32,000 bases of DNA from an uncultured archaeon. GTDB taxonomy: Archaea; Asgardarchaeota; Thorarchaeia; Thorarchaeales; Thorarchaeaceae. Shown piece by piece: positions 564-32,000 of this stretch (its first letter is position 1; every line of letters starts with the position of its first letter). The translations under genes were made by a program, and so were the position numbers. Below the pieces are notes generated by a model. That model did not search any database, was not told where the DNA came from, and worked only from the letters and a program-made list of their open reading frames with translations. The stretch is from assembly GCA_964354495.1 (NCBI GenBank), contig CAYHAA010000007.1, positions 1 through 32,000 of the forward strand, read 5' to 3'.

Positions 564-709
564 GAAATTGCATGCCCATTATTTGTTACTAAAACTATCG
601 TGTTGGTTCTCTTGGCTTTCCCTATTGTCTGTAATAGTGATCTCTGAATGCAATGCTCTGTTGATACATACTCTTCTTATTGGTTGAATGCACACCGGAA
701 TCTAACAAT

Positions 710-1513: not shown

Positions 1514-1581
1514 CCTCGTGTCATAATACTAATCAGGTAGCATGTATGTACATTCTAGCAATACGCGGGAGACAAATAGAG

Positions 1582-3888: not shown

Positions 3889-4453
3889 AATTGTCCTAGT
3901 CACACAAAACAAGCACAAGCTTGCAGAACTAAAACCCCTGTTTGCTGAGTATAAGGTTCGTTTTGATACCACTGACCTTGAGAAACTTGAGATACGATCC
4001 CAGGATGTCGAGCAGATTGCGCTGGCAGCAGCGAGGCATGCTCATGAGAGTCTGAACCGTCCTGTCGTTGTTGATGACACAGGTCTCTTTGTATCATCAC
4101 TCAGTAATTTTCCGGGTTCCTATGCTGCATATGTCTTACAGACTATTGGTTACCGCGGGATCCTCAGACTCTTGGAAGGGGTTCAAGACCGCTCCGCTAG
4201 ATTCGTGACTGCTGTTGCATTCTGTGATGAAGACACTTTGAGATCATTTGTCGGCCAGATGCCCGGAACGATCAGCCAAAGCCCCTCTGGAGAGGGTGGA
4301 TTTGGCTATGATCCAGTTTTCGTTCCGAGTGGCTTCTCTTGTACATATGCTCAGCTATCACTCTCTGAAAAAGTTCGTATCTCACATCGCACTAAGGCAT
4401 TCAGAGCATTCTTGGATTGGAAAACACGCGCACCTGATAAATGTCCACTGTAA
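3875..4453 (+). CDS. rdgB: Non-canonical purine NTP pyrophosphatase (RdgB/HAM1)
   Basis: TQNKHK, VDDTGL, FPGSY, GFGYDPVF, SHR motifs. Confidence 0.93.
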   Translation: MSKDRIVLVTQNKHKLAELKPLFAEYKVRFDTTDLEKLEIRSQDVEQIALAAARHAHESLNRPVVVDDTGLFVSSLSNFPGSYAAYVLQTIGYRGILRLLEGVQDRSARFVTAVAFCDEDTLRSFVGQMPGTISQSPSGEGGFGYDPVFVPSGFSCTYAQLSLSEKVRISHRTKAFRAFLDWKTRAPDKCPL

Positions 4454-4817
4454 AGTAGATAAAACTGGACATCAGGCCGTTCGCCCATGAACAGCACCGA
4501 GCCCGCGAGGAACATGAATAAGAACAGAGAGGAGCCTGCGGCTGGAATCAGAGAACTCTTTCAACAGATTGTAATGAAAACCAAAAAGAGATGGATTGAT
4601 CAGAGAATCTGTAAACGGGAATAATCGACATCATCTGAGATGAAACATGTTCGCATCTAGAGCAGCAAAACTGGAAATGTGGTTGCACGAAAGACACAGG
4701 GGAAGAGATACATAGTACTCCCTGTGCACACGCAACATCAAGGTGTCGCGTTCGATTGATTAGGGACTGGCTTCATAGATTAGTGGTACATTAAAGGCAT
4801 GTAAGGAATGAGTAGAC

Positions 4818-6692
4818 ATGAGTAAATCAGTACGTGGTAGGGGTTTGGCTGTAGTAATAGCTTTGCTCCTGCCTTTGGTCATTGTGGGACTTCAGCATAT
4901 TGCTATACAGCCATCAGTGTGGATTGTCTATGCTGATACGCAAGATGCAAGCATAGATCTTGCCTCTATAACGCTTTCAGATGAAATGATATCAGCAGGA
5001 TATATTGTGAAGGAAATGTCATTCATGGAAATTGACAGAATACCACTCTATTCAGATGCAATAGTGCTTATTGGTCATGGACAAGTAGAAGGGCTTGAGG
5101 TCTTGGATACAATCCTTCCATGGACCCTCGTGAATGATGTGCTAGAGGAACGAGAATCCCAAATGGTTATGTTGCTTACATGCAATTCCCCATCGGAACC
5201 AGAATCAGGTATCTTTGGATTCCCGGGACAGATTGATGCAAGAGCTGGTGCGCTGCTTACTGCTTGGAAGATACTCCAGACCTTAGCACCCCGCCAGCAA
5301 GCGAATATACCACTTGAGCTTGCAGTCGATGCGCAGATGAAGATGGAGCATCCATTGGAGAGCTATGTATACTTCCTACATGGGTACTATGGCAGTAATT
5401 CAGACTTCGATTTCATGAGGGATTATCTAGAACCATTCATAGGCAGCAGATATAGTGCTGGAACGATTGAGAACTATTCGTATTTCGAGGACTACCCTGG
5501 CTTGCCCGAGGAGTGGGTTCACACTTTCGTTGGAGGTGTATCGACCTATAGTGAGAACTTCTATAATCGGCTAATGAATAATCACACCGCAGGAACCCAG
5601 ATTGACATAGTAGCACATAGTATAGGAGGCATCATCATCCGCGAAATGTTGCGCCTGCATCGAGCAGACCTAGAATCAGCAGGGATTGAGATTGGTAGAG
5701 TTGTCACCCTCGGAACGCCGCATTACGGAACTGAGATGGCGTGTGCGAATCTTGGTGCTTTCGCTATCACTGTCTTGCTGTCACTCTTTGGAGATTGCTG
5801 GCTCACCCCCGTCTTTCTCCAAATGCATCCATATAGCCCCTTGATCATGATTTTGAACGCAGATCCTGAAAGCTACATGAGCGGAATTGAATGGTACTCT
5901 ATAAGTGGATATGATTGGTTGATTGGCAACTTACTCTATATGGGTGGAATTCTTAATGGTCCAAATGATCAATTGGTCACCATGAGTAGTGCCAGTGTTC
6001 CCCTCGCATCCGGTACAGAGTACATAAACGGCACTCACGCGATGTTAGTCAGCGACGGGCCCAGTGGAGCATCTTACCCACTTGTCAATGACTGGTTAGG
6101 TGGAGGGATAGACACCGATACCGATGGCATCATTGATGTGGAAGAACGATACATATACTATACAGATCCATATGATAGCGACAGTGACAATGATGCTCTT
6201 AGTGACTACGATGAGATATTCGTTCATGAAACAAATCCTAACGCTTGGAGCACTGATGGCGACATTCTTAGTGATTCACAAGAGATAGCTTGGGGCTATG
6301 ATCCCAATAATACGTACGACCCAATTAACGCACAGGAGCTTACCTACAGCGCGTGGCAGGTCAATGGCGTTACAGGGTATGTTCGAGCAAATCACTATGC
6401 TGCAATGGACTATGTGAAGGTCTATGTCCAATACAAGAACAGCCTGGGCTACTGGACCGCCTATTTCTATGTTGGAACTGATTATACACCCTCCTACTAT
6501 GGAGACTACTATGTGGAGTGGAGCCTTCTCCAAGGGTATGTTCAAATGCAGGTGAATGTTCAGGCATATGCTATAGAATGGGATCCAGCAATAGAACAAG
6601 ATGTCCATATCTATCTTGGTAGCGACCAGCAATACGTCACACTTCCGGGTGGTGGCGGTGGCAAGCCTGGCGGTGATCCGGTGCCAGAGTGA
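4818..6692 (+). CDS. Secreted modular protein: possible clan-CD peptidase-like domain, alpha/beta-hydrolase (lipase/PGAP1-like), TSP3-like Ca-binding repeats, Gly-rich tail
   Basis: N-terminal hydrophobic segment; FLHGYYG, AHSIGG, TLGTPHYGT, NDQLV, GTHA; DTDTDGIID, DSDNDALSD, STDGDILSD repeats; ends GGGGGKPGGDPVPE. Confidence 0.75.
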   Translation: MSKSVRGRGLAVVIALLLPLVIVGLQHIAIQPSVWIVYADTQDASIDLASITLSDEMISAGYIVKEMSFMEIDRIPLYSDAIVLIGHGQVEGLEVLDTILPWTLVNDVLEERESQMVMLLTCNSPSEPESGIFGFPGQIDARAGALLTAWKILQTLAPRQQANIPLELAVDAQMKMEHPLESYVYFLHGYYGSNSDFDFMRDYLEPFIGSRYSAGTIENYSYFEDYPGLPEEWVHTFVGGVSTYSENFYNRLMNNHTAGTQIDIVAHSIGGIIIREMLRLHRADLESAGIEIGRVVTLGTPHYGTEMACANLGAFAITVLLSLFGDCWLTPVFLQMHPYSPLIMILNADPESYMSGIEWYSISGYDWLIGNLLYMGGILNGPNDQLVTMSSASVPLASGTEYINGTHAMLVSDGPSGASYPLVNDWLGGGIDTDTDGIIDVEERYIYYTDPYDSDSDNDALSDYDEIFVHETNPNAWSTDGDILSDSQEIAWGYDPNNTYDPINAQELTYSAWQVNGVTGYVRANHYAAMDYVKVYVQYKNSLGYWTAYFYVGTDYTPSYYGDYYVEWSLLQGYVQMQVNVQAYAIEWDPAIEQDVHIYLGSDQQYVTLPGGGGGKPGGDPVPE

Positions 6693-7921
6693 TGGAACTG
6701 AAATGTGAAGGAGCTATGATGAAAGACCTTTTTGGAGGGTCAACCACTAGCCTGCTGGCTTGGGTTGTCTTCCTCTTCATCCTGACTCCATCAGTTACCG
6801 GTGTAGTCGTTCTAGGGACTGCAATTGGTGGTTCATCTTTCATCCCTGCACAGAGTGAGGCTACTTGGGAGATATTGAATCACGATTTCCTTTCCAGCGG
6901 CGCGTACACGCACGATGTTGAGTTCGTGAACGCAACACATGGGTGGGTTCTTACCCAAAATGGGTCAAGCATACGACAGGGCATGATCTTACATACAAAC
7001 GATAGTGGTGACTCTTGGTATCAGCAGTACTATAATGCTTCTCAAAGGTTTAGGCAAGTTGCTGTCATTGATAGCGAAATCCTCTGGGTGAGTGGGATAG
7101 GAGGTCTGTATCATACTGAGAATGGAGGACTCCTATGGAACAAAACGGGTATAGGCGACGACAATGACTTCTTCTACGGGATTCATTTCTTCAATAGAAC
7201 CCATGGCTGGACATCATCCCATGTAAATATGTACAAGACTACAGATGGCGGGCAGAGCTGGGAATCTGTTGAGTCTTGGGTCTTTGACAATGACTGGGGA
7301 AGAATGATACACTTCATAACTCCCCTAGAGGGGTGGGTATTAGGATTCCTCGGCATCTATCACACCGAGGATGGAGGCGATACCTGGACGAAGAAGGTGA
7401 ACAATGGGGGATGGACAATGTCATTCGTGAGTGATGCTGAGGGCTGGGCAATTGCTGATGATTGGCTCGCACATATGACAGATGGCGAAACATGGGTGGA
7501 ACAACCACTGCCCCGTACATCTCTTCTGCCTACGAGAGCACCCTATTTCTCAGACATCCTTTTCCTAGATACTGACAACGGCTGGATTGTAGGCGACGAA
7601 ACCAAGGTTGCGTATACACCCAATGGAGGCAGGGATTGGTATTCGCAATCTTTCCCGAATGATAATCGAGTATCGGCTGTGGACTTCATTAATGTCACTC
7701 ATGGCTGGGTGGTCGGAAGCGGTGGCTATATCTATCGTACCGTCAATGGTAACAGTCTTGGGATACGTCTATGGACTGGCGTGACTGACCTCATCTTTCT
7801 ATCAAGTGTGGCTGCAATAGCAGTAGTTGTTCTACTCATGGGGGTCTTCATCTGCTACCGGAAACGACGAATAGTACATAGTCTGGTTGGATTGACTTCA
7901 GATGCACCAATTATTGCATAA
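6689..7921 (+). CDS. Membrane-anchored YCF48/BNR-repeat beta-propeller protein
   Basis: Repeated F.N.THGW and T.DGG..W motifs; N-terminal hydrophobic segment; C-terminal TM followed by RKRR; many N-x-S/T sequons; 4-nt overlap with the upstream stop. Confidence 0.85.
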   Translation: MMELKCEGAMMKDLFGGSTTSLLAWVVFLFILTPSVTGVVVLGTAIGGSSFIPAQSEATWEILNHDFLSSGAYTHDVEFVNATHGWVLTQNGSSIRQGMILHTNDSGDSWYQQYYNASQRFRQVAVIDSEILWVSGIGGLYHTENGGLLWNKTGIGDDNDFFYGIHFFNRTHGWTSSHVNMYKTTDGGQSWESVESWVFDNDWGRMIHFITPLEGWVLGFLGIYHTEDGGDTWTKKVNNGGWTMSFVSDAEGWAIADDWLAHMTDGETWVEQPLPRTSLLPTRAPYFSDILFLDTDNGWIVGDETKVAYTPNGGRDWYSQSFPNDNRVSAVDFINVTHGWVVGSGGYIYRTVNGNSLGIRLWTGVTDLIFLSSVAAIAVVVLLMGVFICYRKRRIVHSLVGLTSDAPIIA

Positions 7922-8480: not shown

Positions 8481-8574
8481 AAAGGGGCATCAAGAAATAT
8501 CCGGTTTTATACAGAATTCACGTAGATGTGCCATATCCTTAAGTTGGAACACAGAAACCTCAGCTTCGGTGTTA

Positions 8575-9330
8575 ATGATGTCCGTGAGTGAGGCAACCCT
8601 GAAGGCTCTCAAGCAGCTTGGACTCACTGAGTATGAAACTCAAGCCTACTTAGCTCTGGTTGGAGGTGGCCAGATGGCTGCCTCAGATATCTCCGCAAGG
8701 TCTAAAGTGCCATTCTCGCGGATATACGATGTTCTTGGTCGGTTGGAGGAGAAGCAGTTCGTCCAAGTTCGCAAGGGCAGACCCACGTCATATGTTGCAA
8801 AGGCTCCCACAGAGGTCATGCGTCTCATCCGCCTTGAGTGGGAGGAAAGGCTGAAGGAGTCCAGCAGAGTTGTCGTTGAGGAGTTGCAGCCATTATTCGA
8901 GCAGGAGCAACACGCAACGACGCGCGATGTCTGGGTTGTTCATGGTCGTGCTTCGATACTTGCAAAGGCCATGGAGATGCTTGACTCAGCAAGAGAAGAA
9001 GTGCTTCTCTCACTGCCGTCTTTTGATCTCTCTGCAGAAGATGTGGATGCTGTTGTTGAGAGAGTCCTCGGAGTCAAAGCGAGAGTTCGAATCTTGACAT
9101 CTTCTATCACGGACACTCTCAAAGACCTAATTCCCAGTAAGTTTGAGGTGAGAACCAGAGATCGTGTTTTTGGAGCAGGCCTTGTGGTTGATCAACGAGA
9201 CACCCTGATTATGCTGCCCGGCGGAGAGCAGAATAACGGATTTCTCGGGATATATAGCAGTCACGCAATCTTCGCAGCCATGTCATCAAGCTATTTCGAA
9301 TCTCTGTGGAAAGACTCTAGGCCGATTTAG
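8575..9330 (+). CDS. TrmB-family transcriptional regulator
   Basis: LGLTEYETQAY...VPFSRIYDVLGRLEEK wHTH followed by a C-terminal effector-binding-like domain. Confidence 0.9.
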   Translation: MMSVSEATLKALKQLGLTEYETQAYLALVGGGQMAASDISARSKVPFSRIYDVLGRLEEKQFVQVRKGRPTSYVAKAPTEVMRLIRLEWEERLKESSRVVVEELQPLFEQEQHATTRDVWVVHGRASILAKAMEMLDSAREEVLLSLPSFDLSAEDVDAVVERVLGVKARVRILTSSITDTLKDLIPSKFEVRTRDRVFGAGLVVDQRDTLIMLPGGEQNNGFLGIYSSHAIFAAMSSSYFESLWKDSRPI

Positions 9331-14245: not shown

Positions 14246-14362
14246 GCCCGGATAGCCTAGTGGCTATGGCGGCAGCCTGGAACTGATAGCGTTTCTATTA
14301 CATCCCAACAGGCAGCTGCTCTCCCTTGGGAGGCATGAGTTCGAGTCTCATTCCGGGCGCCA
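14246..14362 (+). tRNA. tRNA-Ser(GGA) with a 31-nt intron at 37/38 (14283-14313) and encoded CCA
   Basis: Acceptor GCCCGGA/TCCGGGC, discriminator G, CCA; D stem GCC/GGC; anticodon stem GCAGC/GCTGC with CT-GGA-A; long variable arm CTCCCTTGGGAG; T arm ATGAG-TTCGAGT-CTCAT. Confidence 0.9.
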
Positions 14363-21104: not shown

Positions 21105-21220
21105 AAATCCTTTACCGTTCATTATTAACTGGACAATCTTGGACACCAGAGTGTTGTCCGCCCAGAAAACGGCACTGGGCTCCACTCCGTGAGGTCAGCT
21201 TAGGCGTCGGGTCTGCCTCA
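21105..21220 (-). ncRNA. Putative stand-alone omegaRNA-like structured RNA (homologous to the TnpB 3' end at 28.5 kb)
   Basis: GAGCCCAGTGCCGTTTTCTGGGCGGACAAC matches GAGCCCAGTGCCGTTCCTGGGCGGATAGC at 28489-28516; both are followed by a second hairpin and a TTA.(.)AATGA.CGGTA motif; TTTATATA box upstream. Confidence 0.55.
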
Positions 21221-21249: not shown

Positions 21250-21323
21250 CATCTGTCCGACTATGTCCAAAATTGAAGCAACTGCCGCGTACCCTTTTGG
21301 ATAATACGATTGGTGAATCAAGT

Positions 21324-21854
21324 GTGACCGCACAACCGAGAGTCCTCATCTATCACGCTGACCAGTGTGACCCAAAGAAATGCACTGGGACACGGCTCAT
21401 CAGAATGAAGAGGGCTCAGATTCTCAAGAACATGAATCAAATACCTCTCGGGGGTGTGGTGCTCAACCCGGTTTCTGAGGTCGCCTTTTCAAGGGCAGAT
21501 CGGGATGCTATTCTGCATGCAGGTCTTGTCGCACTTGACTGTTCGTGGAAAAAGGCTGAAGAGATATTCGCCAACTCGCAATCTGGTATCCAGAGAGCAC
21601 TACCTTACCTGCTTGCTGCGAATCCAGTCAACACCTACAAACCAATCAAGCTGTCCACTGCTGAGGCCGTGGCTGCAGCGCTCTATATTGCTGGTTTCAA
21701 GGAAGAGGCTGAAGACATCATGTCTATCTTCAAGTGGGGACCGGCCTTCATAACGCTGAATCACGAGTTCTTGGAAGCATATTCAAAATGCAGCACGAGC
21801 GGGGAGGTTGTAGAAATACAGAGAGAATACATGGAACTACAGAATCGTGAATGA
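21324..21854 (+). CDS. tsr3: 16S rRNA aminocarboxypropyltransferase Tsr3
   Basis: QCDPKKCTG, ALDCSW, RALPYLLAANPVNTY, LSTAEAVAAAL, FKWGPAFITLN; GTG start with a GGTGA RBS. Confidence 0.93.
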   Translation: MTAQPRVLIYHADQCDPKKCTGTRLIRMKRAQILKNMNQIPLGGVVLNPVSEVAFSRADRDAILHAGLVALDCSWKKAEEIFANSQSGIQRALPYLLAANPVNTYKPIKLSTAEAVAAALYIAGFKEEAEDIMSIFKWGPAFITLNHEFLEAYSKCSTSGEVVEIQREYMELQNRE

Positions 21855-21984
21855 GCTCTTCACTCAACTCTTCAGAATGCCACTTTGCAGAGATGTCAAT
21901 AAGCTAAAAATAATCTAATCCTTAGAGCAATTCTCAGTCTTGTCCTGGAAACGGTCCATGTGGATTTGTCGTTTTACTAACGAC

Positions 21985-23195
21985 TCATTCGATTTGTAAT
22001 TCTTCAAGTTGCTCTCTCGGGCTTGTCTTTCTTTTGCTTTTGTATATGAGAATCAATGACATATATGCTACTGTGGAAACCGTACCTACTAATAATGAGA
22101 TATGCGGAATCCAATAGCCATTGCCTGTCCATCCTTCAGTTAGAGCGAATCCAGTAAGCAGACGAGGCCCAAGGGAATTCCCGCTGGTCGTCCGAGCAAT
22201 AGCCCCCTCCCGTCCAGCAGCCCAACCATGTGACTCATTGATGAAATCAACCGTTTTAAAACGAAAGTCCGGAGTTATCTGCTCATACCAAGAAAAGCCG
22301 CCATCAGGGGTATACGCTACAGCAGGTTCAGCTCCTACAATCCATCCATGTTTGGAGTCGATAAACTCGATATCAGTATAAGATGAATGGCTTGAGATTC
22401 TTATTCTCGAAACTTGTGGAAGCTCTAAAAAACTCCATCAACGAAGTGGGACACGGTTGAGTGATGAAGAATCCATCCTTCACTATCTGTTATGAATGAC
22501 AGGCCAGCAGTGTTTATTGAATCCTCGATCTTCCAAGTCAATCCCCAATCCTCGCTAAGAAATAGACCCAACCATGTGGCAACTCTTATTTTTGAAGCAG
22601 ATAGATGGAAGTCGCGTATTGGGCTATAGTCAGAACTCCAATTGACTGCGGCTTGCCAAGAGATTCCACCATCGATCGTTCTATATAGACCCTGAGAATC
22701 TGCAACCAAGCCATGCGTATTATTGAAAAACTCTACTCTGGGTCCAATGGTTGTTGGAGTGGATTCATTATGCCATGTCACTCCTCCATCGACCGTGTGA
22801 AAGAGTTCGCCATGACCACCTGGCGCATCTATTAATGCACTAGCCCAGACATTCATTGGCGTGACAACTGATAATCCGTAAAGAACACCATTTTCTGGCG
22901 CAAGACTAATGCTCCAAGAGTCACCACTGTCATTGGTATGGAGTAATGCTCTACCTCCCAATAACCAACCATGAGTTGCATTGAGGAATGTTATTTCACT
23001 AAAACCCCAATCATCATAATACTCCTCTGGGACTGATAGTGACTCCCACTCAGCCATAGAGTATCCGATTGGTGGTGCTATTGCGATTTGTGTTGTGAGA
23101 ACAGATGAGAAAATGAACACGACAAATAGGCTAACTATCAACCATCTAGTAGAGTAGTGTTTTCTTACTGCGAATCTTGTTTCAGATTTCATCAT
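21985..23195 (-). pseudogene. Frameshifted YCF48/BNR beta-propeller membrane protein (paralog of 6689-7921)
   Basis: The ORF stops at DGVF* just after an A6 run (22427-22432). Another frame continues LELPQ...YTDIEFIDSKHGWIVG...VAYTPDGGFSWY...VDFINESHGWAAG...TTSGNSLGPRLLTG...TM...KSKRK to TGA at 21985-21987. Confidence 0.85.
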
Positions 23196-23289
23196 CGTTC
23201 ATGAATACTCCCAATACGCATTCGTCGTCCCTCTCTTGTCACTAAATCAATGATGTGTAAAAGCCTTATCGAATTGCAAATAGAATGTG

Positions 23290-23335
23290 AATTGAAATAC
23301 TGTGGCTCTGGTCCAGAGGGTGGCCCTCATTCCTT
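23290..23335 (-). repeat. Degenerate rnpB 3'-end fragment (copy A)
   Basis: tgtggctctggtccagagggtggccctcattc aligns with 24061 tgtagctctggtccagagagtaaccccaattc and 28595 tatggccttggtccaaagaataaccccgattc. Confidence 0.7.
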
Positions 23336-23497
23336 GTAGTAGTCAAACGTACAACTCGCAATAACCATTAGCTCAGATTATTTTGTACACTTAGGTTCTT
23401 ATCCTAAATGCGTTGAACAGGATTACTGAAAATCGAGTTCAGGAAGTGGTTTGCAAGGGGATATGAATAGAATCAGGTCCCATTCGAGGTTGAAACG

Positions 23498-23983
23498 TTG
23501 GAGAGACAGAAGGAGTACAATGCGGGCGTGGAGGAACTAGTCTCAAAGCAGAAAGTAGCAATCGGCTCTCTGCTGTTTCAGGCATCAGTAATCCTTGGTT
23601 TTGTGGTATGGACAATCTACATATTCCCCGCAACATGGCCCTCTGGCTCAATTCCAGGCATTATCGGTCTCTATATCATCTTCATTTCTCCAGGACTCTT
23701 CCCCTTGTTGTTAGCTATAGAGTTGTATAGAGGCAAGCTTCATAGACGGTGGCTACAGGGTTGGGCAGGAACCTGTATTAGTTTCGGGCTGTTCTATCTA
23801 TTAGTGATGGTACGATCTCTTCCCGATTTTGAAATATACAGAATCGCCATGATTATGACCGTTCTATTTCTATTGGTGCCTTCCGGACTTGTCTTGCGTT
23901 TGACAGGGCTCTCCACTTGGAAATGGTTTCCTCCATCGAGGCAAGCGCCCAATCCATTTGAAGGCGATGAACAAGGAGGATAG
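23498..23983 (+). CDS. Hypothetical ~4-TM membrane protein
   Basis: Four hydrophobic segments in 161 aa; lies between rnpB fragments A and B. Confidence 0.7.
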   Translation: MERQKEYNAGVEELVSKQKVAIGSLLFQASVILGFVVWTIYIFPATWPSGSIPGIIGLYIIFISPGLFPLLLAIELYRGKLHRRWLQGWAGTCISFGLFYLLVMVRSLPDFEIYRIAMIMTVLFLLVPSGLVLRLTGLSTWKWFPPSRQAPNPFEGDEQGG

Positions 23984-24051
23984 CTGCCCAATCTACAATG
24001 GACGGCAGGATGCTTAGTTAGAGTTTAAGAAGAAGACATGGTGCCAATCTT

Positions 24052-24125
24052 AAGAGAGATTGTAGCTCTGGTCCAGAGAGTAACCCCAATTCTGTTCCAT
24101 CCCAGACAGTAGCCAAAATGAGATA
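24052..24125 (-). repeat. rnpB 3'-end fragment (copy B)
   Basis: Minus strand GGAACAGAATTGGGGTTACTCTCTGGACCAGAGCTACAATCTCTCTT contains the CR-V motif, the P4 3' strand and a P1 3' strand complementary to the 5' end of the copy at 31572-31590. Confidence 0.8.
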
Positions 24126-24393
24126 GTGTGTTTGAAAAACAACACTTCAAACAGGAGAAATCTTATCCTGTCAATACTGAGTATGCGGTCCCTACCAGTC
24201 AATAGTTGTGAAATAATCGCCACTGGGGATTTTTCTTCTTTGTCTTCTTTTCTACTCTTTTCGCTTGTGGCTGATTTCCAGCCCAAGATACAAGACGGTA
24301 AGCCATTCATCTGGCTGAAGACATCCTGATTAGAAGATCATTTCTTAGTTCAAGGTCTTGCCACGAGCATGGTCTTAGTACTTTGCGGTAATC

Positions 24394-27300
24394 TTACAGA
24401 GGAAGTTGACGAAGTTCTTGAATGACTTCTGGTATCTGCTTCTTCAGCACTTCGCTGACATTGGAGATATTCAACAATTCTGGGACTATGTCAGCTTCAA
24501 AGGTTTCTCTCACTTCTCGTTCAGCCACCCGTATCTCTGCACCAATGAGAACTTTGGTATCATCATATAGAAGTCCAGTCCGAAACATCTTGGTTTCATA
24601 CTGCTCAGCCTCCCAGAGGACAGCTCGCCGCTCCTTATCAACAGAGAGTGTGACTGTCCATTTCCCAAGTTCCTCAGAGCCATCTTCCATATTCAGGGTA
24701 AGGCTCTTCAGCCATGATGTAATCGTGTTCAGGAAGGAACCTGTGTTCCTGATTGAATAGATACCCATCTCGCCCTCAGAGAGCCCGACTTCAATGGCCT
24801 CGATGATTGCATCAGATGACGCTGCATCTGTGATTTCTATAGTGAATGTGAGAAATGGCTCTCTTCGAGTCCTATCGACAGGAAACACGCCATACATGCA
24901 TTTCTTCTTAGACAGTTCAAGAATGCGTAGCTCACAGATGGGACTCGTTTCAGAGTAACCAAGGTTTCTTAGGCCAGAAAGCAACTTTTCTTCGACATTG
25001 GAGACATTCGTCATATATTCCCGTGGAATGTTCGCAGTAATGATGCCCATTATTCTGGTACACTCCTCCTTTGCACCACGGCCATGTGAAAGTTCAATCA
25101 TGTGTTGACTGCCTTCAAAGAAGAGGCCGGAAACCGTCGACTGCGCACTCCACTTGACATGTGCTTCACTGTCCCAGACGATATCGACCATCCATTTCTG
25201 TTTCCTAATACTCAGATAGGTCCCAGGTTCTAGACTACTCAAAATCAGTCCATTTCTACGAAGAAGCATACGGATGTACCGATCCTCATGGAAGACAATT
25301 CCCTCGTCCTTCTCTGACACTGTAGGTGGAGTCATGTCAAGCATGTACAGTTTCCCAGCATAGAGTCGCTCTGGTGCAAGTAGACCGTTCATTTCCTCCC
25401 CTGTCATGGCTCTACCAAGTTGTTTTCGGACTTCATCAGGGCAATCCGGTGGCAATATCACTCTCCAACAGGCGCCATGTTCTAACTCTTCACCCAGTGC
25501 GACTGGGCAGACTGATTGGTCATGCTCAATGCTCAGAGTAAGCGTTTCTGTTTCGTCAAAGAACTGCACAATTCTCTTCGGAAGTCTCTCTGGGACTATC
25601 CGAGCAGCTCTGAGGGTGATGAATGGTTCAATGAACTCTAGGTCCTTATACTCGATATCATCAAAGATGCTCCATGTCACGAATTTGCCCGAGTCTGTGA
25701 ACATCGGACCTCCTTTAACCATGGGCCATCTGAGGAGGGTGATAAGGTCTGCAGTATATTCAATATTGATGCTCTGAAGGACCTCGTCTTCTTCATCAAC
25801 CAGAACAGCATGACACACACCATCCGTCATCTCAAGACGCATAGTTACTGGCGTGGGTCTTGTGATAGCCTTGAGGTGTCTTTGAAGAGAGTCGGTTACT
25901 CGCTTGTAGAATGATTCTGGGGGTCGTGCTCCCGTTGTAGGATGAGATCTAGGAATCTCAGTGAAGGTCTGACGAATCGCTCGGAGTTGTCCTACGGTTG
26001 AACGTCCCTGACCTATCAATTCGAGGACTCCTGAATTGATAACCTCATTGTCGTTCTGCATCGAGCTCCATGTTTCAATGCCACTCTCGGTCCTTTTACA
26101 CATCATGATAGTCTGTGGGAGTTCTAGTATCTCATCCAGACTCTGTCGTGTCAGCACGTTTGATCTGGTTTCTGCCCAGAGATATCCATCTTTGGTTGGA
26201 GGTCTATCTATGAAACACCCAACAAGCATTCTTCCCTCATTCTCAGGGTCTTGCATCACAATCCACCAGGGCTGGGTTTGATCCTCCTCTGCTGCGAACT
26301 TGATTCCAAACAGCCACTCCTCCAATTCCTCCTCGGATTGTAAGGGGGTGGGGAGTGTCTGTTTTGGTATTGTCTTTAACCTGTTCGGGGAGCGATAGAG
26401 TCGCTGAGAGTTGATCTTACCAGCGGTCACAGTCACAAAGGATGCGCTGTCAAGGGTGGCAGGAATCCTATACCGTAGAAGATCAAGGATATGGGGGGCT
26501 GGACTGGGGGGTTCATGTAAAGTTGCTTGTTGAAAGCTCGGCCCATCTGAGATTCTTCTAAACTCAGTATCCAGCCTTGTGAATAGTTCTTCGAGGGTGT
26601 CCTTCGAGTCCTCAACAAGTGTTGCCTTTGGCCAGAGTCGCACAAGCCATGGGAGCAGAGTCAGTGAGAGGAGTTTCATTCGTATTCGAAGCTCTCTCTC
26701 AGGTATGATATTATCTATCTCTTGATTTCGAACGACTTGTCCAGTTCCCATGTTCCTAAATCTCTTAGACCACCCCCTCAGAAGTGGGACATGGGTCAAC
26801 TCAATTTCCAACTTGTTAGTTGACTGATGGATGATAACTCGAATATCATCATGCATGGGGGAGTCGCCAATGATAGGCATTTTCCACTTTTCGGGGTCGA
26901 TAGTTCCCCTTGGTGCTACAGGCAGGTTCCAGACAATCTCTGTCACCATCTCAGCGAGAGAGGAGTCTTCATAGAACGGGAGGAGAGCTCTACTAGAGTA
27001 CGATACAGCTTTCTCGACAGAGGGGACAGGCGAATCGAACCAGACAATAATGGTGCTCTCATCCTCCGGAAGACTGCTCAGAAGGTGATCCATCACGATC
27101 TTGAGTCTCTCACTATGAGTTGATGGTGTCGCATCCCGAAGAATGTCAGCTCCTGTGACAATGATGATTCTTTCTTTATCAGAGCTCGTATCAATGGCAA
27201 ATGATGGTTCATCTCCATCCTCGTAGAGGAAAGATAGGATATCATCAAGATACCCCCTAATCTCAATCTTTTCGAAGAACTCTCGAATATGATTAGGTTG

Positions 27301-28155
27301 GGCCTTGAACACTTCCTCTTCTGAATAACCCCTAGGTCTTAGACGCAGTCGTGCTTCAGCAAGGCGCCTATCATTGAACTGGTCAGCTAGGTCAATCCAG
27401 AAAAACATTTCACCAGTCTGTGATTCTTTCATATTATAGAGCATCTGAAGTCCGTGATAGTTCCGAGCGTTCCAGGCGGCAGACGGTCCTGCAGATGTCG
27501 GTACAGCACCTGCCAAATAGAGAATGAACTGAGGCCTCATTCCTTGAATGATCTTGAGCGGATTGTAGAGAGGCTGCCATGGAATCTCAATGGCTTCATC
27601 TTTTTTACTTCCAGATGCGTGCTGTTCATGAACAACTAAGGCAATGTGGTTATATTCGTTGCTGGTGGGCGTAACGATTGTGCGTTTAATCTTTCGAGAT
27701 TTCTCCATCACACACTCATAGGCATGTACCAACAGGCTCTCGATGACTCGTCGCACTTTATCTACATCTGAATCAGAGTCGACAATGAGAGTCCCTCTCA
27801 GAACATGTCCGAGTTCGTGGTGCGTGGCATCCTGATAGATGTCTGTCAGAGCCTCAGCATAGGCCATTAACTGCTCCTCTGCCGAGGGAGTAGGAGTTGA
27901 CTTGACAATTGCATTCCACATGTCATCATCAAGTGGATAATCATTCATAGGAAACTCACTCACAACTCTCTGGACAGGACTTCCATCCTGTCGAACCTCG
28001 GATTTCTTGTAGTCAGGTTTAATGTACCAGCTATCTCCTCTACGGGTCTTAATCTCCAACACGAACCTCGGTCTCCAGAGCGCCCGTTTTCCATCCTCTG
28101 TGATGATCCTCTCCAGCAGGACGAGATCGGTTCTGCGAACATCATGGAGTGAAGA
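24394..28155 (-). CDS. Large (~1250 aa) hypothetical protein with an N-terminal RecB-type PD-(D/E)xK nuclease motif; apparently 5'-truncated
   Basis: The frame stays open 31 codons upstream of the tracked GTG (stop at 28156-28158) without a start codon; RRTDLVL...FVLEIKTR...EEQLMAY gives D...ExK...QxxxY. Confidence 0.7.
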   Translation of the reverse strand, partial: SSLHDVRRTDLVLLERIITEDGKRALWRPRFVLEIKTRRGDSWYIKPDYKKSEVRQDGSPVQRVVSEFPMNDYPLDDDMWNAIVKSTPTPSAEEQLMAYAEALTDIYQDATHHELGHVLRGTLIVDSDSDVDKVRRVIESLLVHAYECVMEKSRKIKRTIVTPTSNEYNHIALVVHEQHASGSKKDEAIEIPWQPLYNPLKIIQGMRPQFILYLAGAVPTSAGPSAAWNARNYHGLQMLYNMKESQTGEMFFWIDLADQFNDRRLAEARLRLRPRGYSEEEVFKAQPNHIREFFEKIEIRGYLDDILSFLYEDGDEPSFAIDTSSDKERIIIVTGADILRDATPSTHSERLKIVMDHLLSSLPEDESTIIVWFDSPVPSVEKAVSYSSRALLPFYEDSSLAEMVTEIVWNLPVAPRGTIDPEKWKMPIIGDSPMHDDIRVIIHQSTNKLEIELTHVPLLRGWSKRFRNMGTGQVVRNQEIDNIIPERELRIRMKLLSLTLLPWLVRLWPKATLVEDSKDTLEELFTRLDTEFRRISDGPSFQQATLHEPPSPAPHILDLLRYRIPATLDSASFVTVTAGKINSQRLYRSPNRLKTIPKQTLPTPLQSEEELEEWLFGIKFAAEEDQTQPWWIVMQDPENEGRMLVGCFIDRPPTKDGYLWAETRSNVLTRQSLDEILELPQTIMMCKRTESGIETWSSMQNDNEVINSGVLELIGQGRSTVGQLRAIRQTFTEIPRSHPTTGARPPESFYKRVTDSLQRHLKAITRPTPVTMRLEMTDGVCHAVLVDEEDEVLQSINIEYTADLITLLRWPMVKGGPMFTDSGKFVTWSIFDDIEYKDLEFIEPFITLRAARIVPERLPKRIVQFFDETETLTLSIEHDQSVCPVALGEELEHGACWRVILPPDCPDEVRKQLGRAMTGEEMNGLLAPERLYAGKLYMLDMTPPTVSEKDEGIVFHEDRYIRMLLRRNGLILSSLEPGTYLSIRKQKWMVDIVWDSEAHVKWSAQSTVSGLFFEGSQHMIELSHGRGAKEECTRIMGIITANIPREYMTNVSNVEEKLLSGLRNLGYSETSPICELRILELSKKKCMYGVFPVDRTRREPFLTFTIEITDAASSDAIIEAIEVGLSEGEMGIYSIRNTGSFLNTITSWLKSLTLNMEDGSEELGKWTVTLSVDKERRAVLWEAEQYETKMFRTGLLYDDTKVLIGAEIRVAEREVRETFEADIVPELLNISNVSEVLKKQIPEVIQELRQLPL

Positions 28156-28523
28156 CTATTTACTTTGAAGACCTCCGCTCCTTTCAAGCAAATGGGGGTA
28201 TGAAACGACACAGCTGGAACCTTTCAATCAATCTTTGGGGCAAGATGATTGAGGGTGTTCGATATCGCCGCGAAACTCTAGGTCATAGATATGGTGGTAT
28301 CTGGATGATTAATCCTGCATGGACCTCACAGATCTGCCATGTCTGTGGGCAGCGGGGTTTCCGAGTGGAGGACGATGTTTCTACGAATGAGAAGAAGGGA
28401 GGCGAATACTTCCATTGCCCAAAGTGTAGAGCGCATTTTCATGCTGATGTAAATGCAGCACGAAACATTATGCAATTTCAACCACCTGAGCCCAGTGCCG
28501 TTCCTGGGCGGATAGCTTTGTAG
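28131..28523 (+). pseudogene. tnpB: 5'-truncated TnpB (IS200/IS605 or IS607 family)
   Basis: RuvC-II IYFEDL, PAWTSQICHVCG...FHCPKC zinc ribbon, RuvC-III HADVNAARNI; RuvC-I and the N-terminal lobe are absent. Confidence 0.88.
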
Positions 28524-28547
28524 CTAGTCAACTTACAATGACCGGTA
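28489..28547 (+). ncRNA. TnpB right end / omegaRNA scaffold region
   Basis: Hairpin GCCCAG-TGCCGTTC-CTGGGC overlapping the tnpB 3' end, a second hairpin, then TTACAATGACCGGTA; same layout as 21113-21183. Confidence 0.55.
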
Positions 28548-28597
28548 GGAAGCTTAGTTCGATACCGCTCTCAATAAGAAAATCATGGTAGAAATAT

Positions 28598-28947
28598 GGC
28601 CTTGGTCCAAAGAATAACCCCGATTCTGTTCCACCTCATCTCGTTACCGAAATGAAGTCTTGCAACATCGAACTAACGCTCTCTACCCTACATCTTGGAC
28701 CGACGCCTCAGCGATGTATTCTTGAGATTGCTCAACAGTGATGGGCCGTTTCAGCCTGTCCGAACGAGTCCTCAACAGATTCAAGTCCGTATCATTGTCA
28801 CATCCCGTTCGGGGGTGTCGTTTCTGTTCCCAGAGCGAGGCTCTCGCCTCCCTGCTTTCACAGGACTGTTGTCGGTATGAGTCAGGAGTTTCCTCAGCTC
28901 TCATCCCGGGGGATAAGTACCGTCAGTTGCACTTCTGCTCCAAGGCC
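28598..28947 (-). ncRNA. rnpB: RNase P RNA, complete copy (copy 1)
   Basis: P1 GGCCTTGG/CCAAGGCC; CR-I GAGGAAACTCCTGA (28882-28895); ACAGAAAC; CTGAAACGG; GAGCAA; TTAGTTCGATG; CR-V GAACAGAATCGGGGTTA (28615-28632); P4 AAC(U)CCUGA pairs with UCGGGGUU; 350 nt. Confidence 0.9.
28742..28942. repeat. 201-bp perfect direct repeat, copy 1 (partner 31374-31574)
   Basis: Base-by-base identity by eye from tgggccgtttc to cttctgctcca. Confidence 0.95.
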
Positions 28948-28968
28948 TATTCCAATTTGCATTCATCG

Positions 28969-28976
28969 CTATAAAA
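28969..28976 (-). promoter_or_regulatory. TATA box of the complete rnpB copy
   Basis: TTTTATAG 22-29 nt upstream of the P1 5' strand. Confidence 0.6.
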
Positions 28977-29000
28977 GTAATTGGGTGAGTTAATAGAATA

Positions 29001-31232
29001 TCATATCGTTTCCTTTGAGAATTTGAATATTCGAATCTTCCCTCTTGAAATTGGAGGAGTCCAGCAGATAATATAAACTCGTTCTACATTCATCGTGCGT
29101 GCTTTTCTATTTCCTAATCTGACTATATCTTCTTTCCGTGATTCTATATTCTCCATGCATCCAAATATCACGCTAATTTTGCCAATAACGAGGGGTTTTG
29201 AAACTGGTGTTCCTTTTCTTATTTTTTGTTTTTCGCAACCTTTTATGATTTTTACTATCTTGGAACGGATTGCTTCATTTGATTCCAATAAGTGAAGACA
29301 TACAGAAACGAAATGATTTGGTTGCTCATCCTCCAAACGAGATAGTAATGCTTCAAAGACGGAATCCATCTTGAAATATGGTTTGGATGTTATACTGCCT
29401 TGGACCTGTGACGATGAATAATATGCATCTAGATCCTGAGTGTGTGAGGATATCATGAATCTATCAACATCTTTGAATCTTTCTTCCTGATGGGATAGAT
29501 CGTTTTGAAGAAACCTTCCAAAATAATCCATTTCATCAAATGCTTCAATCAATGAATCTTCATTCTGAGCGATTCGTTCTCTGAGATAGTGGAGAAAGAT
29601 AGATGGATGATTAATTATTTCCGAAACGATGCGAAGGTCGTTGAGATATACAAACCAAGGCCATTCTTTTCCTATAACCAAACCCAATTTCTTTGCTGTT
29701 GAGAGGTGTGAACTCAATTCATACAAAGGTTCGTCGTTAATCAGGATGATGAATATGTTTTCAAATTTCTTTTGCTCGATTTGAACTACTGGAACACCCC
29801 TATCATTATAGAAAATAACAGAAGGGGCTGATTTAATAAATCGGAGTGCTCTGGTTGCTTGATCATTTGCTTTCGTCAGTATTTCACTAAGACTATCTAT
29901 TATACCCTGAATAGATCCTCGTTTCTTTTGCCTAGGAATTTGACCAGCTTTGGCTTCTATGATAATGAGCACATCGTCATAGATTACGAGTCCATCAAGT
30001 TCATAGAGCTGTGGTTTAGAACCCTCTATCGGACCGTATCGTAACTTTGGGAATACCTTAGAAGATGGGAGCAAAGTTCGAATGTAACGCAATGATGTTT
30101 CTTCAACGTATTCATCTCTAGATTTGAGATATTTTTGGAATTGGTTTGGTGATTGCTGTTTGAGAAGATGCTCCGATATGAGTCGTAAATTTCTCAATGC
30201 TAAGGATGGATTGAAAACGTAGTATTGTTGATTGTGCTTAATAATCGGACGGAGTGAGATTATTGTATCATTTGTGGGCCATCCTCTCCATTCTGTTTTT
30301 GCAGGGCTAAGAAAATCAACATTGTTTCCGAGTTCGCAGCTTAGACATTGCAGAATCTTGTCATCAGTTGTTTTCTGCGGTTCCACTTCAAAAGCATATA
30401 ATAATTCCAAGGGGCGTAAATCAGAATGTATGCTTCTTGGTTCGCATTGAACATCTTCCCTTGATTTTAGTAAACCTGTATTGAATTTTCCATGTAATTC
30501 TGCTATTGTGTCAAATATATCGCGTTCTTGTTGCATAGTTAAGAGATACTTGCTTTTTACTCTTTGAAAGAACTCATATAGGTCTTGAGCTGAAAAACCA
30601 ATTGTGTTTTCTAGGTATTGGCTTTGTTTCCTGAATAGTTCTAGAAATGTTTGATCTAGATGCTGGATATAGGCATCGCCTCTTCTGAACAAATAGGAAA
30701 GAATTAGTTTGAATCTCAATTCAGCCTCAACTGGATTCTCTTGATTGGTTACAAATTCAGAGCCGAAATAGTTGGAAACATTCAATTCGAGTTCATTCCA
30801 AAGACTGAGAGCTTTTTCTATCTCTGCTCTTTTTGGCTCTTTCCAAGTAGATGAGTAAGGCTTCGAAGTAGCTATACTCATTAAATATTCTATGAGCGAC
30901 TCGTCTGTTGAATCAGATGATATTCCCGAGGCTCTAATTTGAACTAATTTTTGAATTTCTGCAATAATCGATAATGGGTTGTATTCTACGACAAGACTTT
31001 CGAATTTGCTTATTATGATATCTACCGCTCTCTTGAAATCCGGTTTTCTATTGCGTAGATTTTCAATGAATAGCTTATGTTGTCTGGAATCCCATCTAGA
31101 TGTAATTGAAATATACTTACCTTCCCTATGGATCGTAAAGGGGCCATGCTCGAAGGTTTCAGAATCATCTATCTTAGATGCTTCTTCTCTAGTGGATTTC
31201 TTTCCTCTATGTATGTACTTCTTCTTCTTCAA
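29001..31232 (-). CDS. NERD/PD-(D/E)xK nuclease-domain protein (743 aa), AT-rich cargo
   Basis: YELDGLVIYDDVLIIIEAKAG motif; visibly more AT-rich than the flanking core genes. Confidence 0.75.
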   Translation of the reverse strand: MKKKKYIHRGKKSTREEASKIDDSETFEHGPFTIHREGKYISITSRWDSRQHKLFIENLRNRKPDFKRAVDIIISKFESLVVEYNPLSIIAEIQKLVQIRASGISSDSTDESLIEYLMSIATSKPYSSTWKEPKRAEIEKALSLWNELELNVSNYFGSEFVTNQENPVEAELRFKLILSYLFRRGDAYIQHLDQTFLELFRKQSQYLENTIGFSAQDLYEFFQRVKSKYLLTMQQERDIFDTIAELHGKFNTGLLKSREDVQCEPRSIHSDLRPLELLYAFEVEPQKTTDDKILQCLSCELGNNVDFLSPAKTEWRGWPTNDTIISLRPIIKHNQQYYVFNPSLALRNLRLISEHLLKQQSPNQFQKYLKSRDEYVEETSLRYIRTLLPSSKVFPKLRYGPIEGSKPQLYELDGLVIYDDVLIIIEAKAGQIPRQKKRGSIQGIIDSLSEILTKANDQATRALRFIKSAPSVIFYNDRGVPVVQIEQKKFENIFIILINDEPLYELSSHLSTAKKLGLVIGKEWPWFVYLNDLRIVSEIINHPSIFLHYLRERIAQNEDSLIEAFDEMDYFGRFLQNDLSHQEERFKDVDRFMISSHTQDLDAYYSSSQVQGSITSKPYFKMDSVFEALLSRLEDEQPNHFVSVCLHLLESNEAIRSKIVKIIKGCEKQKIRKGTPVSKPLVIGKISVIFGCMENIESRKEDIVRLGNRKARTMNVERVYIICWTPPISRGKIRIFKFSKETI

Positions 31233-31312
31233 AACCTATTCTCCCATTTCGTGCAGAAGAATCAAACACATAGTTCTACTAAGTCATCGTCACATCGCAA
31301 TAAGAATCCCTT

Positions 31313-31590
31313 CCTACCCTACACCTCAGGTCGACACGTCAACAGTGTATTCTTGGAATTGCTCAACCAGTGTTGGGCCGTTTCAGCCTGTCCGAACGAG
31401 TCCTCAACAGATTCAAGTCCGTATCATTGTCACATCCCGTTCGGGGGTGTCGTTTCTGTTCCCAGAGCGAGGCTCTCGCCTCCCTGCTTTCACAGGACTG
31501 TTGTCGGTATGAGTCAGGAGTTTCCTCAGCTCTCATCCCGGGGGATAAGTACCGTCAGTTGCACTTCTGCTCCAGAGCTACATCTCTCTT
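31313..31590 (-). pseudogene. rnpB: RNase P RNA, 5'-intact and 3'-truncated copy (copy 2)
   Basis: Own P1 5' strand, 201-nt core identical to copy 1, then ~60 nt diverged; no CR-V or P4 3' strand before the NERD gene. Confidence 0.8.
31374..31574. repeat. 201-bp perfect direct repeat, copy 2 (partner 28742-28942)
   Basis: Identical to 28742-28942; offset 2632 bp. Confidence 0.95.
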
Positions 31591-31602
31591 TATGATTCAA
31601 CT

Positions 31603-31610
31603 CATAAAAA
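31603..31610 (-). promoter_or_regulatory. TATA box of rnpB copy 2
   Basis: TTTTTATG 21-28 nt upstream of TGTAGCTCTGG, just downstream of the cbf5 stop. Confidence 0.55.
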
Positions 31611-31631
31611 GATGGCTAAATCACATAATAC

Positions 31632-32000
31632 TCACTCGTCCGCAGAGTGTTTCTTCCACATCTGAGGATATCTCCCTCTGACCATCAAGACACGCTCGCT
31701 GGTAGCCACTATCCCGCTCTTGGCCTTCGCGATCCTCTCACTGTTATCATTGCTCGTTGCCAGCGCAACGGCTTCCCCCTTCAAGGTCTTGATGAGTAAA
31801 AGGTCTCCATTCTTGATGCCTGTGTTCAAACTGAGAACTCCTGTTGCAGCAAGGTCCGCACCGTGGCATATTGCATCAACGGCGGAGTCTCGTATCTGTA
31901 TGAATGGCAAATGGCCTAAGGCGAACTCCGTAGGCAGCAGATATCTGCGAAGGAGTTTCTCGTCACCATTCTCCTTCCAGAAGATGTAGGCGTCTTTCAG
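31632..32000 (-). CDS. cbf5: H/ACA pseudouridine synthase Cbf5 (TruB family), C-terminal PUA part; 5' end outside the window
   Basis: LKDAYIFWKENGDEKLLRRYLLPTE...IRDSAVDAICHGADLAATGV...TLKGEAVALA...ERVLMVRGRYPQMWK. Confidence 0.92.
   Translation of the reverse strand: MKDAYIFWKENGDEKLLRRYLLPTEFALGHLPFIQIRDSAVDAICHGADLAATGVLSLNTGIKNGDLLLIKTLKGEAVALATSNDNSERIAKAKSGIVATSERVLMVRGRYPQMWKKHSADE

Follow-up and report, generated by a model that had tools for sequence, protein, structure and literature searches.

The 3' end of the RNase P RNA gene as a recurrent insertion platform for gene cassettes in a genus of Thorarchaeota

The window analyzed here is a stretch of 32,000 nucleotides, the first 32 kb of contig C7 in a 3.3-Mb metagenome-assembled genome (MAG) of Thorarchaeota (51 contigs, 97.7% complete, 3.8% contamination). 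The region of interest lies between cbf5 and tsr3 and contains rnpB, the gene for RNase P RNA, as two copies and several shorter pieces with other genes among them. The 3' part of cbf5 is at 31632-32000 on the minus strand (Pfam PUA and TruB_C_2). This gene extends past the window and is the syntenic upstream neighbor of rnpB in all congeners. The conserved far border is tsr3 (DUF367; 21273-21854, plus strand; NCBIfam PRK02287, E value of 9e-66). An initial annotation of this DNA had described the gene order, with cbf5, tsr3, and a tnpB fragment, as we found it with Pfam and NCBIfam, and it had proposed that rnpB serves as an integration and gene-capture platform.

We searched for RNase P RNA with Rfam model RF00373, which has a gathering score of 84 bits and scores the rnpB genes of congeners at 146 to 170 bits. 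We also used nhmmer with a hidden Markov model (HMM) built from 12 rnpB genes of the genus. There were two Rfam matches, at 28603-28942 (157.5 bits) and 31249-31574 (110 bits), both on the minus strand, and the genome-wide search found no third match and no further rnpB fragment elsewhere in the genome. Copy 1 (28598-28947, minus strand, including 5-bp leader and trailer extensions of helix P1) covers RF00373 positions 1 to 288 in full and has both ACAGAA and the GGGGUU strand. Its call as a complete rnpB in the initial annotation passes the covariance model. Copy 2 (31286-31579, minus strand) has the leader AGCTC and is intact over positions 1 to 262, up to 31310, followed by a diverged tail. 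Despite its 110 bits, its 3' quarter is unrelated, and ACAGAA, CR-V, and the 3' strand of P4 are absent. Therefore, copy 2 is a 5' stump, as had been annotated for the cbf5-proximal copy. Both copies share an exact 207-nt repeat that begins at RNA position +1 (28736-28942 and 31368-31574). Beyond it they are 78% identical across 54 nt and then unrelated.

Each copy has a promoter region of its own on the minus strand. Upstream of copy 2 (31580-31631) is a TATA-like CTTTTTAT box, and this region aligns with the upstream regions of the congeners G012, G006, and G017. The CTTTTTAT box is present with equal spacing in 24 congeners. The second promoter, P', upstream of copy 1 (28948-29000), has a CTTTTATAG box with the spacing of the genus promoter and a different sequence, which is ~67% identical to the upstream region in metagenome contig L087. 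Away from the rnpB locus, sub-threshold RNase P matches to model positions ~38 to 191, the specificity domain, occur in three genomes (G012:C76:31966-32128, G001:C5:8936-9065, and G075:C60:4-156).

Three shorter pieces of rnpB are also present. Fragment B (24064-24124, minus strand) is a displaced 3' end that comprises HMM positions 287 to 342 and the trailer GAGCT (nhmmer match at 24069-24124, E value of 6e-12). Fragment A (23304-23335, minus strand) is an older, decayed 3' end that precedes a cassette encoding a BNR-repeat protein. It is weak by HMM alone (23309-23352, E value of 0.58), and its identification comes from an exact 14-mer, alignment with the 3' ends of the genus, and orthology. 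The 14-mer, CTCTGGACCAGAGC, occurs within the window only at 23305-23318 in fragment A and at 24065-24078 in fragment B. Positions 22064-23326 are orthologous to the junction of an rnpB 3' end and a BNR gene in congener G015, and fragment A is orthologous to the rnpB 3' end or fragment ahead of the BNR gene in G057, G060, and G015. Fragments A and B both sit in unique sequence. These results confirm the rnpB-derived pieces of the initial annotation and add a fifth, a 17-nt segment (28547-28563, plus strand) that is identical to HMM positions ~255 to 271 (nhmmer match at 28544-28568, E value of 0.01). It is inverted and abuts the right end of an insertion sequence (IS), in the position of a TnpB guide.

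The interval is empty in many relatives. In 15 congeners, cbf5 is followed by a ~55-nt promoter and a single rnpB, with only 13 to 60 nt between rnpB and the convergent tsr3. The closest relative, G012, has 86 to 93% DNA identity over 30 kb and aligns with the window up to 21854 and again from 31310. Therefore, ~9.4 kb (21855-31309) is extra in the window genome. We looked for a remnant rnpB fragment adjoining tsr3 (21855-21900) and found nothing convincing.

Other members of the genus have filled intervals. G015, G057, G060, G061, and G063 carry extra co-oriented rnpB 3' fragments between rnpB and tsr3, with one on contig C40 and three on contig C91 of G015 and five in G061. In JGI metagenomes, a scan with an exact pattern gave 30 loci on 29 contigs. 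Displaced fragments were present on ~14 of the 29, and one 72-kb contig had at least 6. In the other genera of the family, a 63-nt BLAST probe, which is less sensitive there, detected no extra fragments in 59 genomes. The interval comparison suggested by the initial annotation thus gave variable cargo between co-oriented rnpB 3' pieces in six genomes and on roughly half of the metagenome contigs that matched, with the decayed pieces farthest from the gene. It supports the proposed platform with its layered array, and the rnpB 3' end is confirmed as a recurrent, genus-wide insertion platform for cassettes. As in islands of the tDNA type, an intact regenerated gene is accompanied by displaced direct 3' fragments in the window, five other genomes, and ~14 metagenome contigs, and the empty site is found in the 15 congeners. 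No integrase was found among the island ORFs scanned.

We considered that the 3' pieces might be functional units rather than relics, reused by cassette genes as terminators or processing signals. Each piece does contain a hairpin and a palindrome and sits between genes. However, the farther a piece is from rnpB, the more decayed it is, and the point of truncation differs among the pieces. No other locus in the genome has them, and the cassette genes lie in both orientations. We regard this possibility as scarcely credible.

The cargo of the arrays is mostly one gene per unit, and it consists mainly of surface-type repeat proteins. The types include NosD/beta-helix, FG-GAP, beta-propeller, LamG, LRR, and BNR proteins, a Ras-family GTPase, and small membrane proteins. 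A common family of membrane cassettes in G063 and G000 was rejected, as the two are not homologous. A Pfam scan of ~50 cassette open reading frames (ORFs) in arrays outside the window identified no integrase, transposase, or resolvase. In G057, the BNR cassette directly follows the working gene, and in G060, G015, and G000, newer units lie between the two. Terminal fragments retain the ancestral flank beside tsr3, and some cassettes are common to different array positions (a 418-aa unit in G015 and G007 and a 534/550-aa unit in G015 and G061). The BNR displacement, the ancestral flank, and the shared cassettes fit stepwise addition at the gene-proximal end. One 1.64-kb cassette is inverted between locus L045 of G061 (4584-6224) and G015:C91, where the two are 86% identical, and one of its breakpoints is exactly at the boundary of the rnpB 3' end and the trailer.

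The window island carries the following genes in addition to the tnpB fragment. Behind fragment A is a BNR/Ycf48-like cassette gene (21985-23195, minus strand; Pfam PSII_BNR), apparently a pseudogene with a frame stop at 22425. Its orthologues of 407 to 411 aa are intact in G015 and G060. Between fragments B and A is an ORF for a 161-aa multi-pass membrane protein (23498-23983), so called only from hydrophobic stretches of its translation. It had been annotated on the minus strand and is on the plus strand. It had no family match. Next is a giant gene (24394-28062, minus strand) for an N-terminally truncated, 1222-aa member of a Thorarchaeota family of ~1650 aa, in which homologues of 1630 to 1660 aa span the whole query. 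The annotation had reported a nuclease motif here, but we found no nuclease match in the gene and no Pfam domain in the family. L087, where the giant gene is intact and inverted, is the only case with this gene beside rnpB, and in L058 the giant gene has another location. The family has several copies per Thorarchaeota genome. In L058, a JGI contig, an intact 696-aa TnpB-like gene is divergent from a 78-aa ORF and a 1631-aa giant gene (318-7606). Between the two rnpB copies is a 743-aa cassette gene (29001-31232, minus strand) with a GC content of 36 to 37%, versus 46 to 50% in its flanks. It probably has a PD-(D/E)xK nuclease-like domain, with weak matches to GapS1 (E value of 7.5e-5) and CARF_PDDEXK (E value of 0.009) over residues 320 to 462. 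The annotation had named it a NERD gene, but the protein has no Pfam match, NERD included. Its homologues in Thorarchaeota are not rnpB linked. Among the island ORFs scanned with Pfam, PHROGs, NCBIfam, and PADLOC, which were the larger ORFs and only part of the short ORFs and pseudogene pieces, no recombinase was found, in agreement with the annotation's statement that the window has no integrase.

We then asked which copy of rnpB is resident. In all 22 complete rnpB genes of the genus, the 5 nt before +1 and the first 3 nt of the RNA pair at 8 of 8 positions with its last 3 nt and the 5 trailing nt. There are at least five leader/trailer combinations in the genus, and they co-vary. Therefore, P1 of the RNase P RNA of this genus is 5 bp longer than the ends of the Rfam model, and the annotated gene ends of copy 1 agree with this extension. 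The leader of copy 2 (AGCTC) pairs 8/8 with the trailer of fragment B (GAGCT), and this is the type of G012, G006, and G017. Positions 208 to 262 of copy 2 are 100% identical to G012, copy 2 carries the ancestral promoter, and fragment B is 98% identical to G006 and 91% identical to G012. The leader/trailer pairing, the ancestral promoter, and the G012/G006-type segments show that copy 2 and fragment B are the two halves of the resident rnpB. The leader of copy 1 (GGCCT) pairs 8/8 with its own trailer (AGGCC). Over positions 208 to 262, its identity is 98% to L087 and 94.5% to G007 but only 74.5% to the resident type. Its TATA promoter is homologous to that of L087, in which the giant gene also adjoins rnpB. 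Its self-matching leader and trailer, its G007/L087-type positions 208 to 262, and its L087-like promoter identify copy 1 as a foreign allele with its own promoter. The resident rnpB is thus split by a 7.1-kb block carrying a whole foreign rnpB. The layered insertions of the initial annotation are supported, with the change that the cbf5-proximal 5' copy is the broken resident gene and not a new insert. The annotation had also not foreseen that the complete copy is a foreign allele with a promoter of its own.

The 207 nt shared by the two copies are not purely of the resident type, a possibility that we rejected. They are a patchwork of L087-like and G012-like tracts, which fits gene conversion between co-resident copies as a putative explanation. 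A simple Campbell origin of both copies, by a crossover between chromosome and circle in the 207-nt repeat, was also rejected, because the co-varying P' leader and AGGCC trailer would fall on different parent molecules.

An exact repeat of this kind raises the question of an assembly artifact, in which the array or the tandem rnpB copies would be a chimeric repeat path in the MAG, produced by a strain mixture. The 51 contigs and 3.8% contamination of the MAG are compatible with this. The 207-nt repeat can also be traversed in two ways, and the alternative path gives one hybrid rnpB and a 2.6-kb circle. However, the path of the contig gives 8/8 leader/trailer pairs and the alternative gives only 6/8, fragments A and B are in unique sequence, and independent MAGs have comparable arrays, as do metagenome contigs of many different samples. 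An artifact is unlikely in view of these arrays and of the coherence of the leader/trailer pairs, and we assign it a very small probability.

From the observed anatomy, empty sites, recurrence, and allele origins, we infer a recombination mechanism and an order of events. The explanation we favor, with moderate confidence, is that Campbell-type recombination at the conserved 3' end of rnpB builds the array, without a cassette-borne integrase. The short spacer between rnpB and tsr3 would be a recombination hot spot in this genus. Incoming DNA with its own rnpB 3' segment would recombine with the chromosomal rnpB in the conserved 3' part. The 3' end that came in would restore the gene, and the previous one would be displaced downstream, behind the new cargo. 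Repetition of these events would produce a layered array, with the newest cassette beside the gene and decayed fragments toward tsr3. The incoming DNA might be circular or looped-out cassette DNA, for example circles that arose between the direct repeats in other arrays. The layers of the window would be the BNR gene with fragment A, the membrane protein ORF with fragment B, and the 7.1-kb block. This block holds the complete foreign rnpB and its promoter, a decayed IS607/TnpB element, the truncated giant gene, and the low-GC 743-aa gene. It would have inserted inside the resident gene, giving the stump (copy 2) and fragment B, and gene conversion would then have made the first 207 nt of both copies identical.

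The evidence for Campbell-type recombination comes from the cassettes and from rnpB itself. We examined the starts of 31 displaced fragments, and they range from HMM position ~72 to 118 up to 317, so that the duplicated length is ~25 to 270 nt. Because no recombinase was found among the cassette ORFs scanned and the duplicated length is variable, single-crossover Campbell-type recombination is suggested. The initial annotation had offered two routes, successive insertions or Campbell-type recombination with circles, and the missing integrase favors the second, although the mechanism stays an interpretation. Campbell-type recombination is also favored because rnpB alleles are mosaic across the genus and because 3' parts have been replaced without cargo in the metagenome contigs L077 and L086. 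In these (L077 1993-2906 and L086 4921-5822), almost directly behind a complete rnpB is a second copy that lacks only the first ~70 to 120 nt, and there is no cargo between the two. The displaced copies carry a different allele.

Several observations weigh against this explanation. For homologous recombination, 30 to 60 nt of homology is a short tract. The 7.1-kb block does not have clean junctions, with ~15 nt of the resident gene missing or diverged. The exactness of the 207-nt repeat may partly be an assembly effect, if the assembly passed twice through one repeat node. Relative to the fragments, the 534/550-aa unit has opposite orientations in G015 and G061, which a simple Campbell model does not explain. 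Finally, 17 of the 31 fragment starts cluster at HMM positions 283 to 296. This cluster could mark a fixed att site, or it could be no more than an effect of the adjoining upstream hairpin, which is variable, aligns poorly, and limits the alignment.

The clustered starts suggest site-specific integration. For this, an attP would have been copied from the last ~55 to 60 nt of rnpB, and a tyrosine or serine recombinase would have acted in trans or would no longer be present in any remnant. The anatomy is that of the tRNA/tmRNA island model, with a regenerated target and a displaced fragment (PMC4383910). There is a near-perfect palindrome (CTCTGG-A-CCAGAG) in the site, a symmetric core would permit the one cassette that is found in both orientations, and IS607 serine recombinases are present in the genome. 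However, the extended P1 helix of the RNA accounts for the palindrome, and the duplicated length is not constant. There is also no integrase or recombinase among the scanned ORFs of the window island or the ~50 cassette ORFs of other arrays, and we found no attP-bearing element in the genome and no viral contig that carries the rnpB site. We consider site-specific integration unlikely.

The third possibility involves nucleases, and the TnpB element in the 7.1-kb block bears on it. This element (28149-28546, plus strand) is a C-terminal fragment of TnpB (Pfam Cas12f1-like_TNB at 28149-28523, E value of 3e-14) followed by the right end of the IS. We aligned the right end with 7 to 17 genomic copies up to ...AATGA(A/C)CGGT, which fixed the boundary. 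A paralogue on contig C24 has a serine-recombinase TnpA as well as TnpB. Therefore, the family is IS607. The window element retains the TNB/RuvC C terminus and the conserved right end, and it lacks TnpA and a full-length TnpB, of which only 124 aa are left. A 3.1-kb deletion relative to L058, which keeps the intact arrangement of TnpB, 78-aa ORF, and giant gene, took away the rest. In addition, solo copies of the IS607/TnpB right end, 31 to 69 nt long and without tnpB, occur in the window at 21114-21182 (minus strand) and in at least 15 other places in the genome. One solo right end is between a 90-aa gene and tsr3, and three are in the cbf5-side flank of G015. They look like orphan omegaRNA-like elements or miniature inverted-repeat transposable element (MITE)-like elements.

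In the nuclease explanation, by homing or by cleave-and-rescue, cassette-linked nucleases would cut insert-free rnpB, and repair would copy in the cassette along with an rnpB 3' end, or an entire rnpB, that is resistant to the nuclease. The candidates are an IS607 TnpB with an rnpB-matching guide, the PD-(D/E)xK-like 743-aa protein, and a GIY-YIG-like ORF of G060. The last of these, at 8482-8841 (plus strand) of locus L051, encodes 119 aa and is the sole cargo between the working rnpB and an 83- to 89-nt displaced fragment. It has an Atlas feature score of 0.96 to GIY-YIG clusters and a GVY...YIG...R...E...N motif.

Characterized TnpBs cleave 15 to 21 nt from the transposon-associated motif (TAM). 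The IS right end abuts the 17 rnpB-identical nt in the window and in G015, where, on contig C40, the whole 3' part of rnpB and then the BNR gene come after the same junction. In rnpB, this 17-nt target is directly preceded by TAGGGT, and the hexamer (T/G)AGGGT is found beside the left end of four IS copies. In the resident stump, the break is 6 nt inside the target, and the missing or diverged resident segment (positions ~263 to 277) would cover the expected cut site if this TnpB cleaves at the distance of the characterized ones. The linked complete copy, copy 1, has two substitutions and a 1-nt insertion in its target region. The IS junction is therefore suggestive of RNA-guided cutting of the resident rnpB, a possibility raised by sequence matches. 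TnpB acts as a homing nuclease in bacteria (PMC10055086), and the replacement of the 3' part without cargo in L077 and L086 is also consistent with nuclease-driven repair.

However, the window TnpB is only a 124-aa remnant, most cassettes have no nuclease, and the GIY-YIG call comes only from the motif and language-model features, with no Pfam match at an E value of ≤1. The "resistant" AGAGAGC allele is also common in array-free genomes. Furthermore, the rnpB on contig C50 of G015 has the TAM and the first 4 target nt before the contig ends, and G015 has the same guide-bearing junction. Therefore, the guide would probably target the cell's own gene. We consider nuclease-driven replacement distinctly improbable. 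A cleave-and-rescue module is doubtful to a slightly greater extent. In this module, a TnpB element with an rnpB-matching guide would break the resident rnpB, and the linked, mismatched allele would become indispensable and fix the island. If it is true, nucleases aimed at rnpB would drive turnover of the 3' end and the build-up of cassette arrays. Near this site, the end of G015:C50 and the start of G016:C173 stop inside rnpB at HMM positions 264 and 268, no more than 10 nt from the copy 2 break and the IS junction. A pattern search found no uninterrupted rnpB junction in G015 or G016, with a pattern that misfit the allele of G016, and no contig of G015 spans the region of HMM position 264.

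Islands at tRNA and tmRNA genes have a regenerated target and a displaced 3' fragment, and successive events stack (PMC4383910). The rnpB arrays are like those cataloged by Islander in that insertion is at the 3' part of a small stable-RNA gene, the incoming sequence regenerates the gene, displaced 3' fragments in direct orientation mark older borders, and events stack. They are unlike them in their target, in having no integrase found in the arrays, in their mostly single-gene units, and in their variable duplicated length. In addition, one rnpB event brought a whole gene and promoter and split the resident gene. By analogy, we regard the rnpB arrays as a variant of tRNA/tmRNA-type island integration. 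A non-tRNA structural RNA gene also serves as an insertion site in ffs (4.5S RNA), which a 2025 paper described as a new RNA-gene att site, listing otherwise only tRNA, tmRNA, and csRNA genes (PMC12540744). Unlike the rnpB arrays, that case is a single bacterial prophage with its own integrase, a 27-nt core, and no array.

Other known systems share some features with these arrays. Like integron arrays, they have mostly single-gene cassettes between short structured repeats, with the newest beside a fixed platform. Unlike integrons, they have both cassette orientations, their repeats are the end of a host gene and not attC, and there is no IntI-type integrase beside the array, where the neighbors are cbf5, tsr3, and tiaS. 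Like IS607/IS605 TnpB-omegaRNA homing (PMC10055086), the window has an IS607 right end and then a flank that matches a target in rnpB with a TAM-like hexamer. Unlike such homing systems, the window element is a remnant, and the rnpB sequence in its flank amounts to only 17 nt, in inverted orientation next to the gene. HeimM2, a Heimdallarchaeal element between 16S rRNA and tRNA genes with a homing-endonuclease-type gene, is likewise an Asgard mobile element beside stable-RNA genes that was possibly placed by a nuclease (PMC8813620). Its lineage and its target are different, and neither an array nor displaced pieces of a gene were described for it (PMC8813620). In the literature searched, we found no report of rnpB as an insertion hot spot, which is not proof of absence. 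RNase P RNA is not mentioned in a 2021 review of archaeal tyrosine recombinases or in the main paper on Asgard mobile elements.

The classic landing pads of islands are tRNA and tmRNA genes, and here the gene of an essential ribozyme takes that role. The rnpB platform accumulates surface-protein genes without a cassette-borne integrase, and rnpB itself is a mosaic of exchanged 3' parts. The arrays are a traceable record of gene flow in uncultured Asgard archaea. The window further indicates that an essential RNA gene can be broken at its own locus while a second copy there takes over its function. The locus is also a concrete candidate for addressing whether TnpB guides can target essential host genes.

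The spacer between cbf5 and rnpB is variable too. In G061 (L045 1849-2984) it contains two ORFs, one for a 168-aa GNAT-family protein and one for a 136-aa protein without a Pfam match, and in L087 (reverse complement, 124-1769) it also contains two ORFs. Elsewhere in the window, a tRNA gene at 14246-14359 (plus strand; Rfam tRNA, 46.7 bits) has a 33-nt insertion at the intron position.

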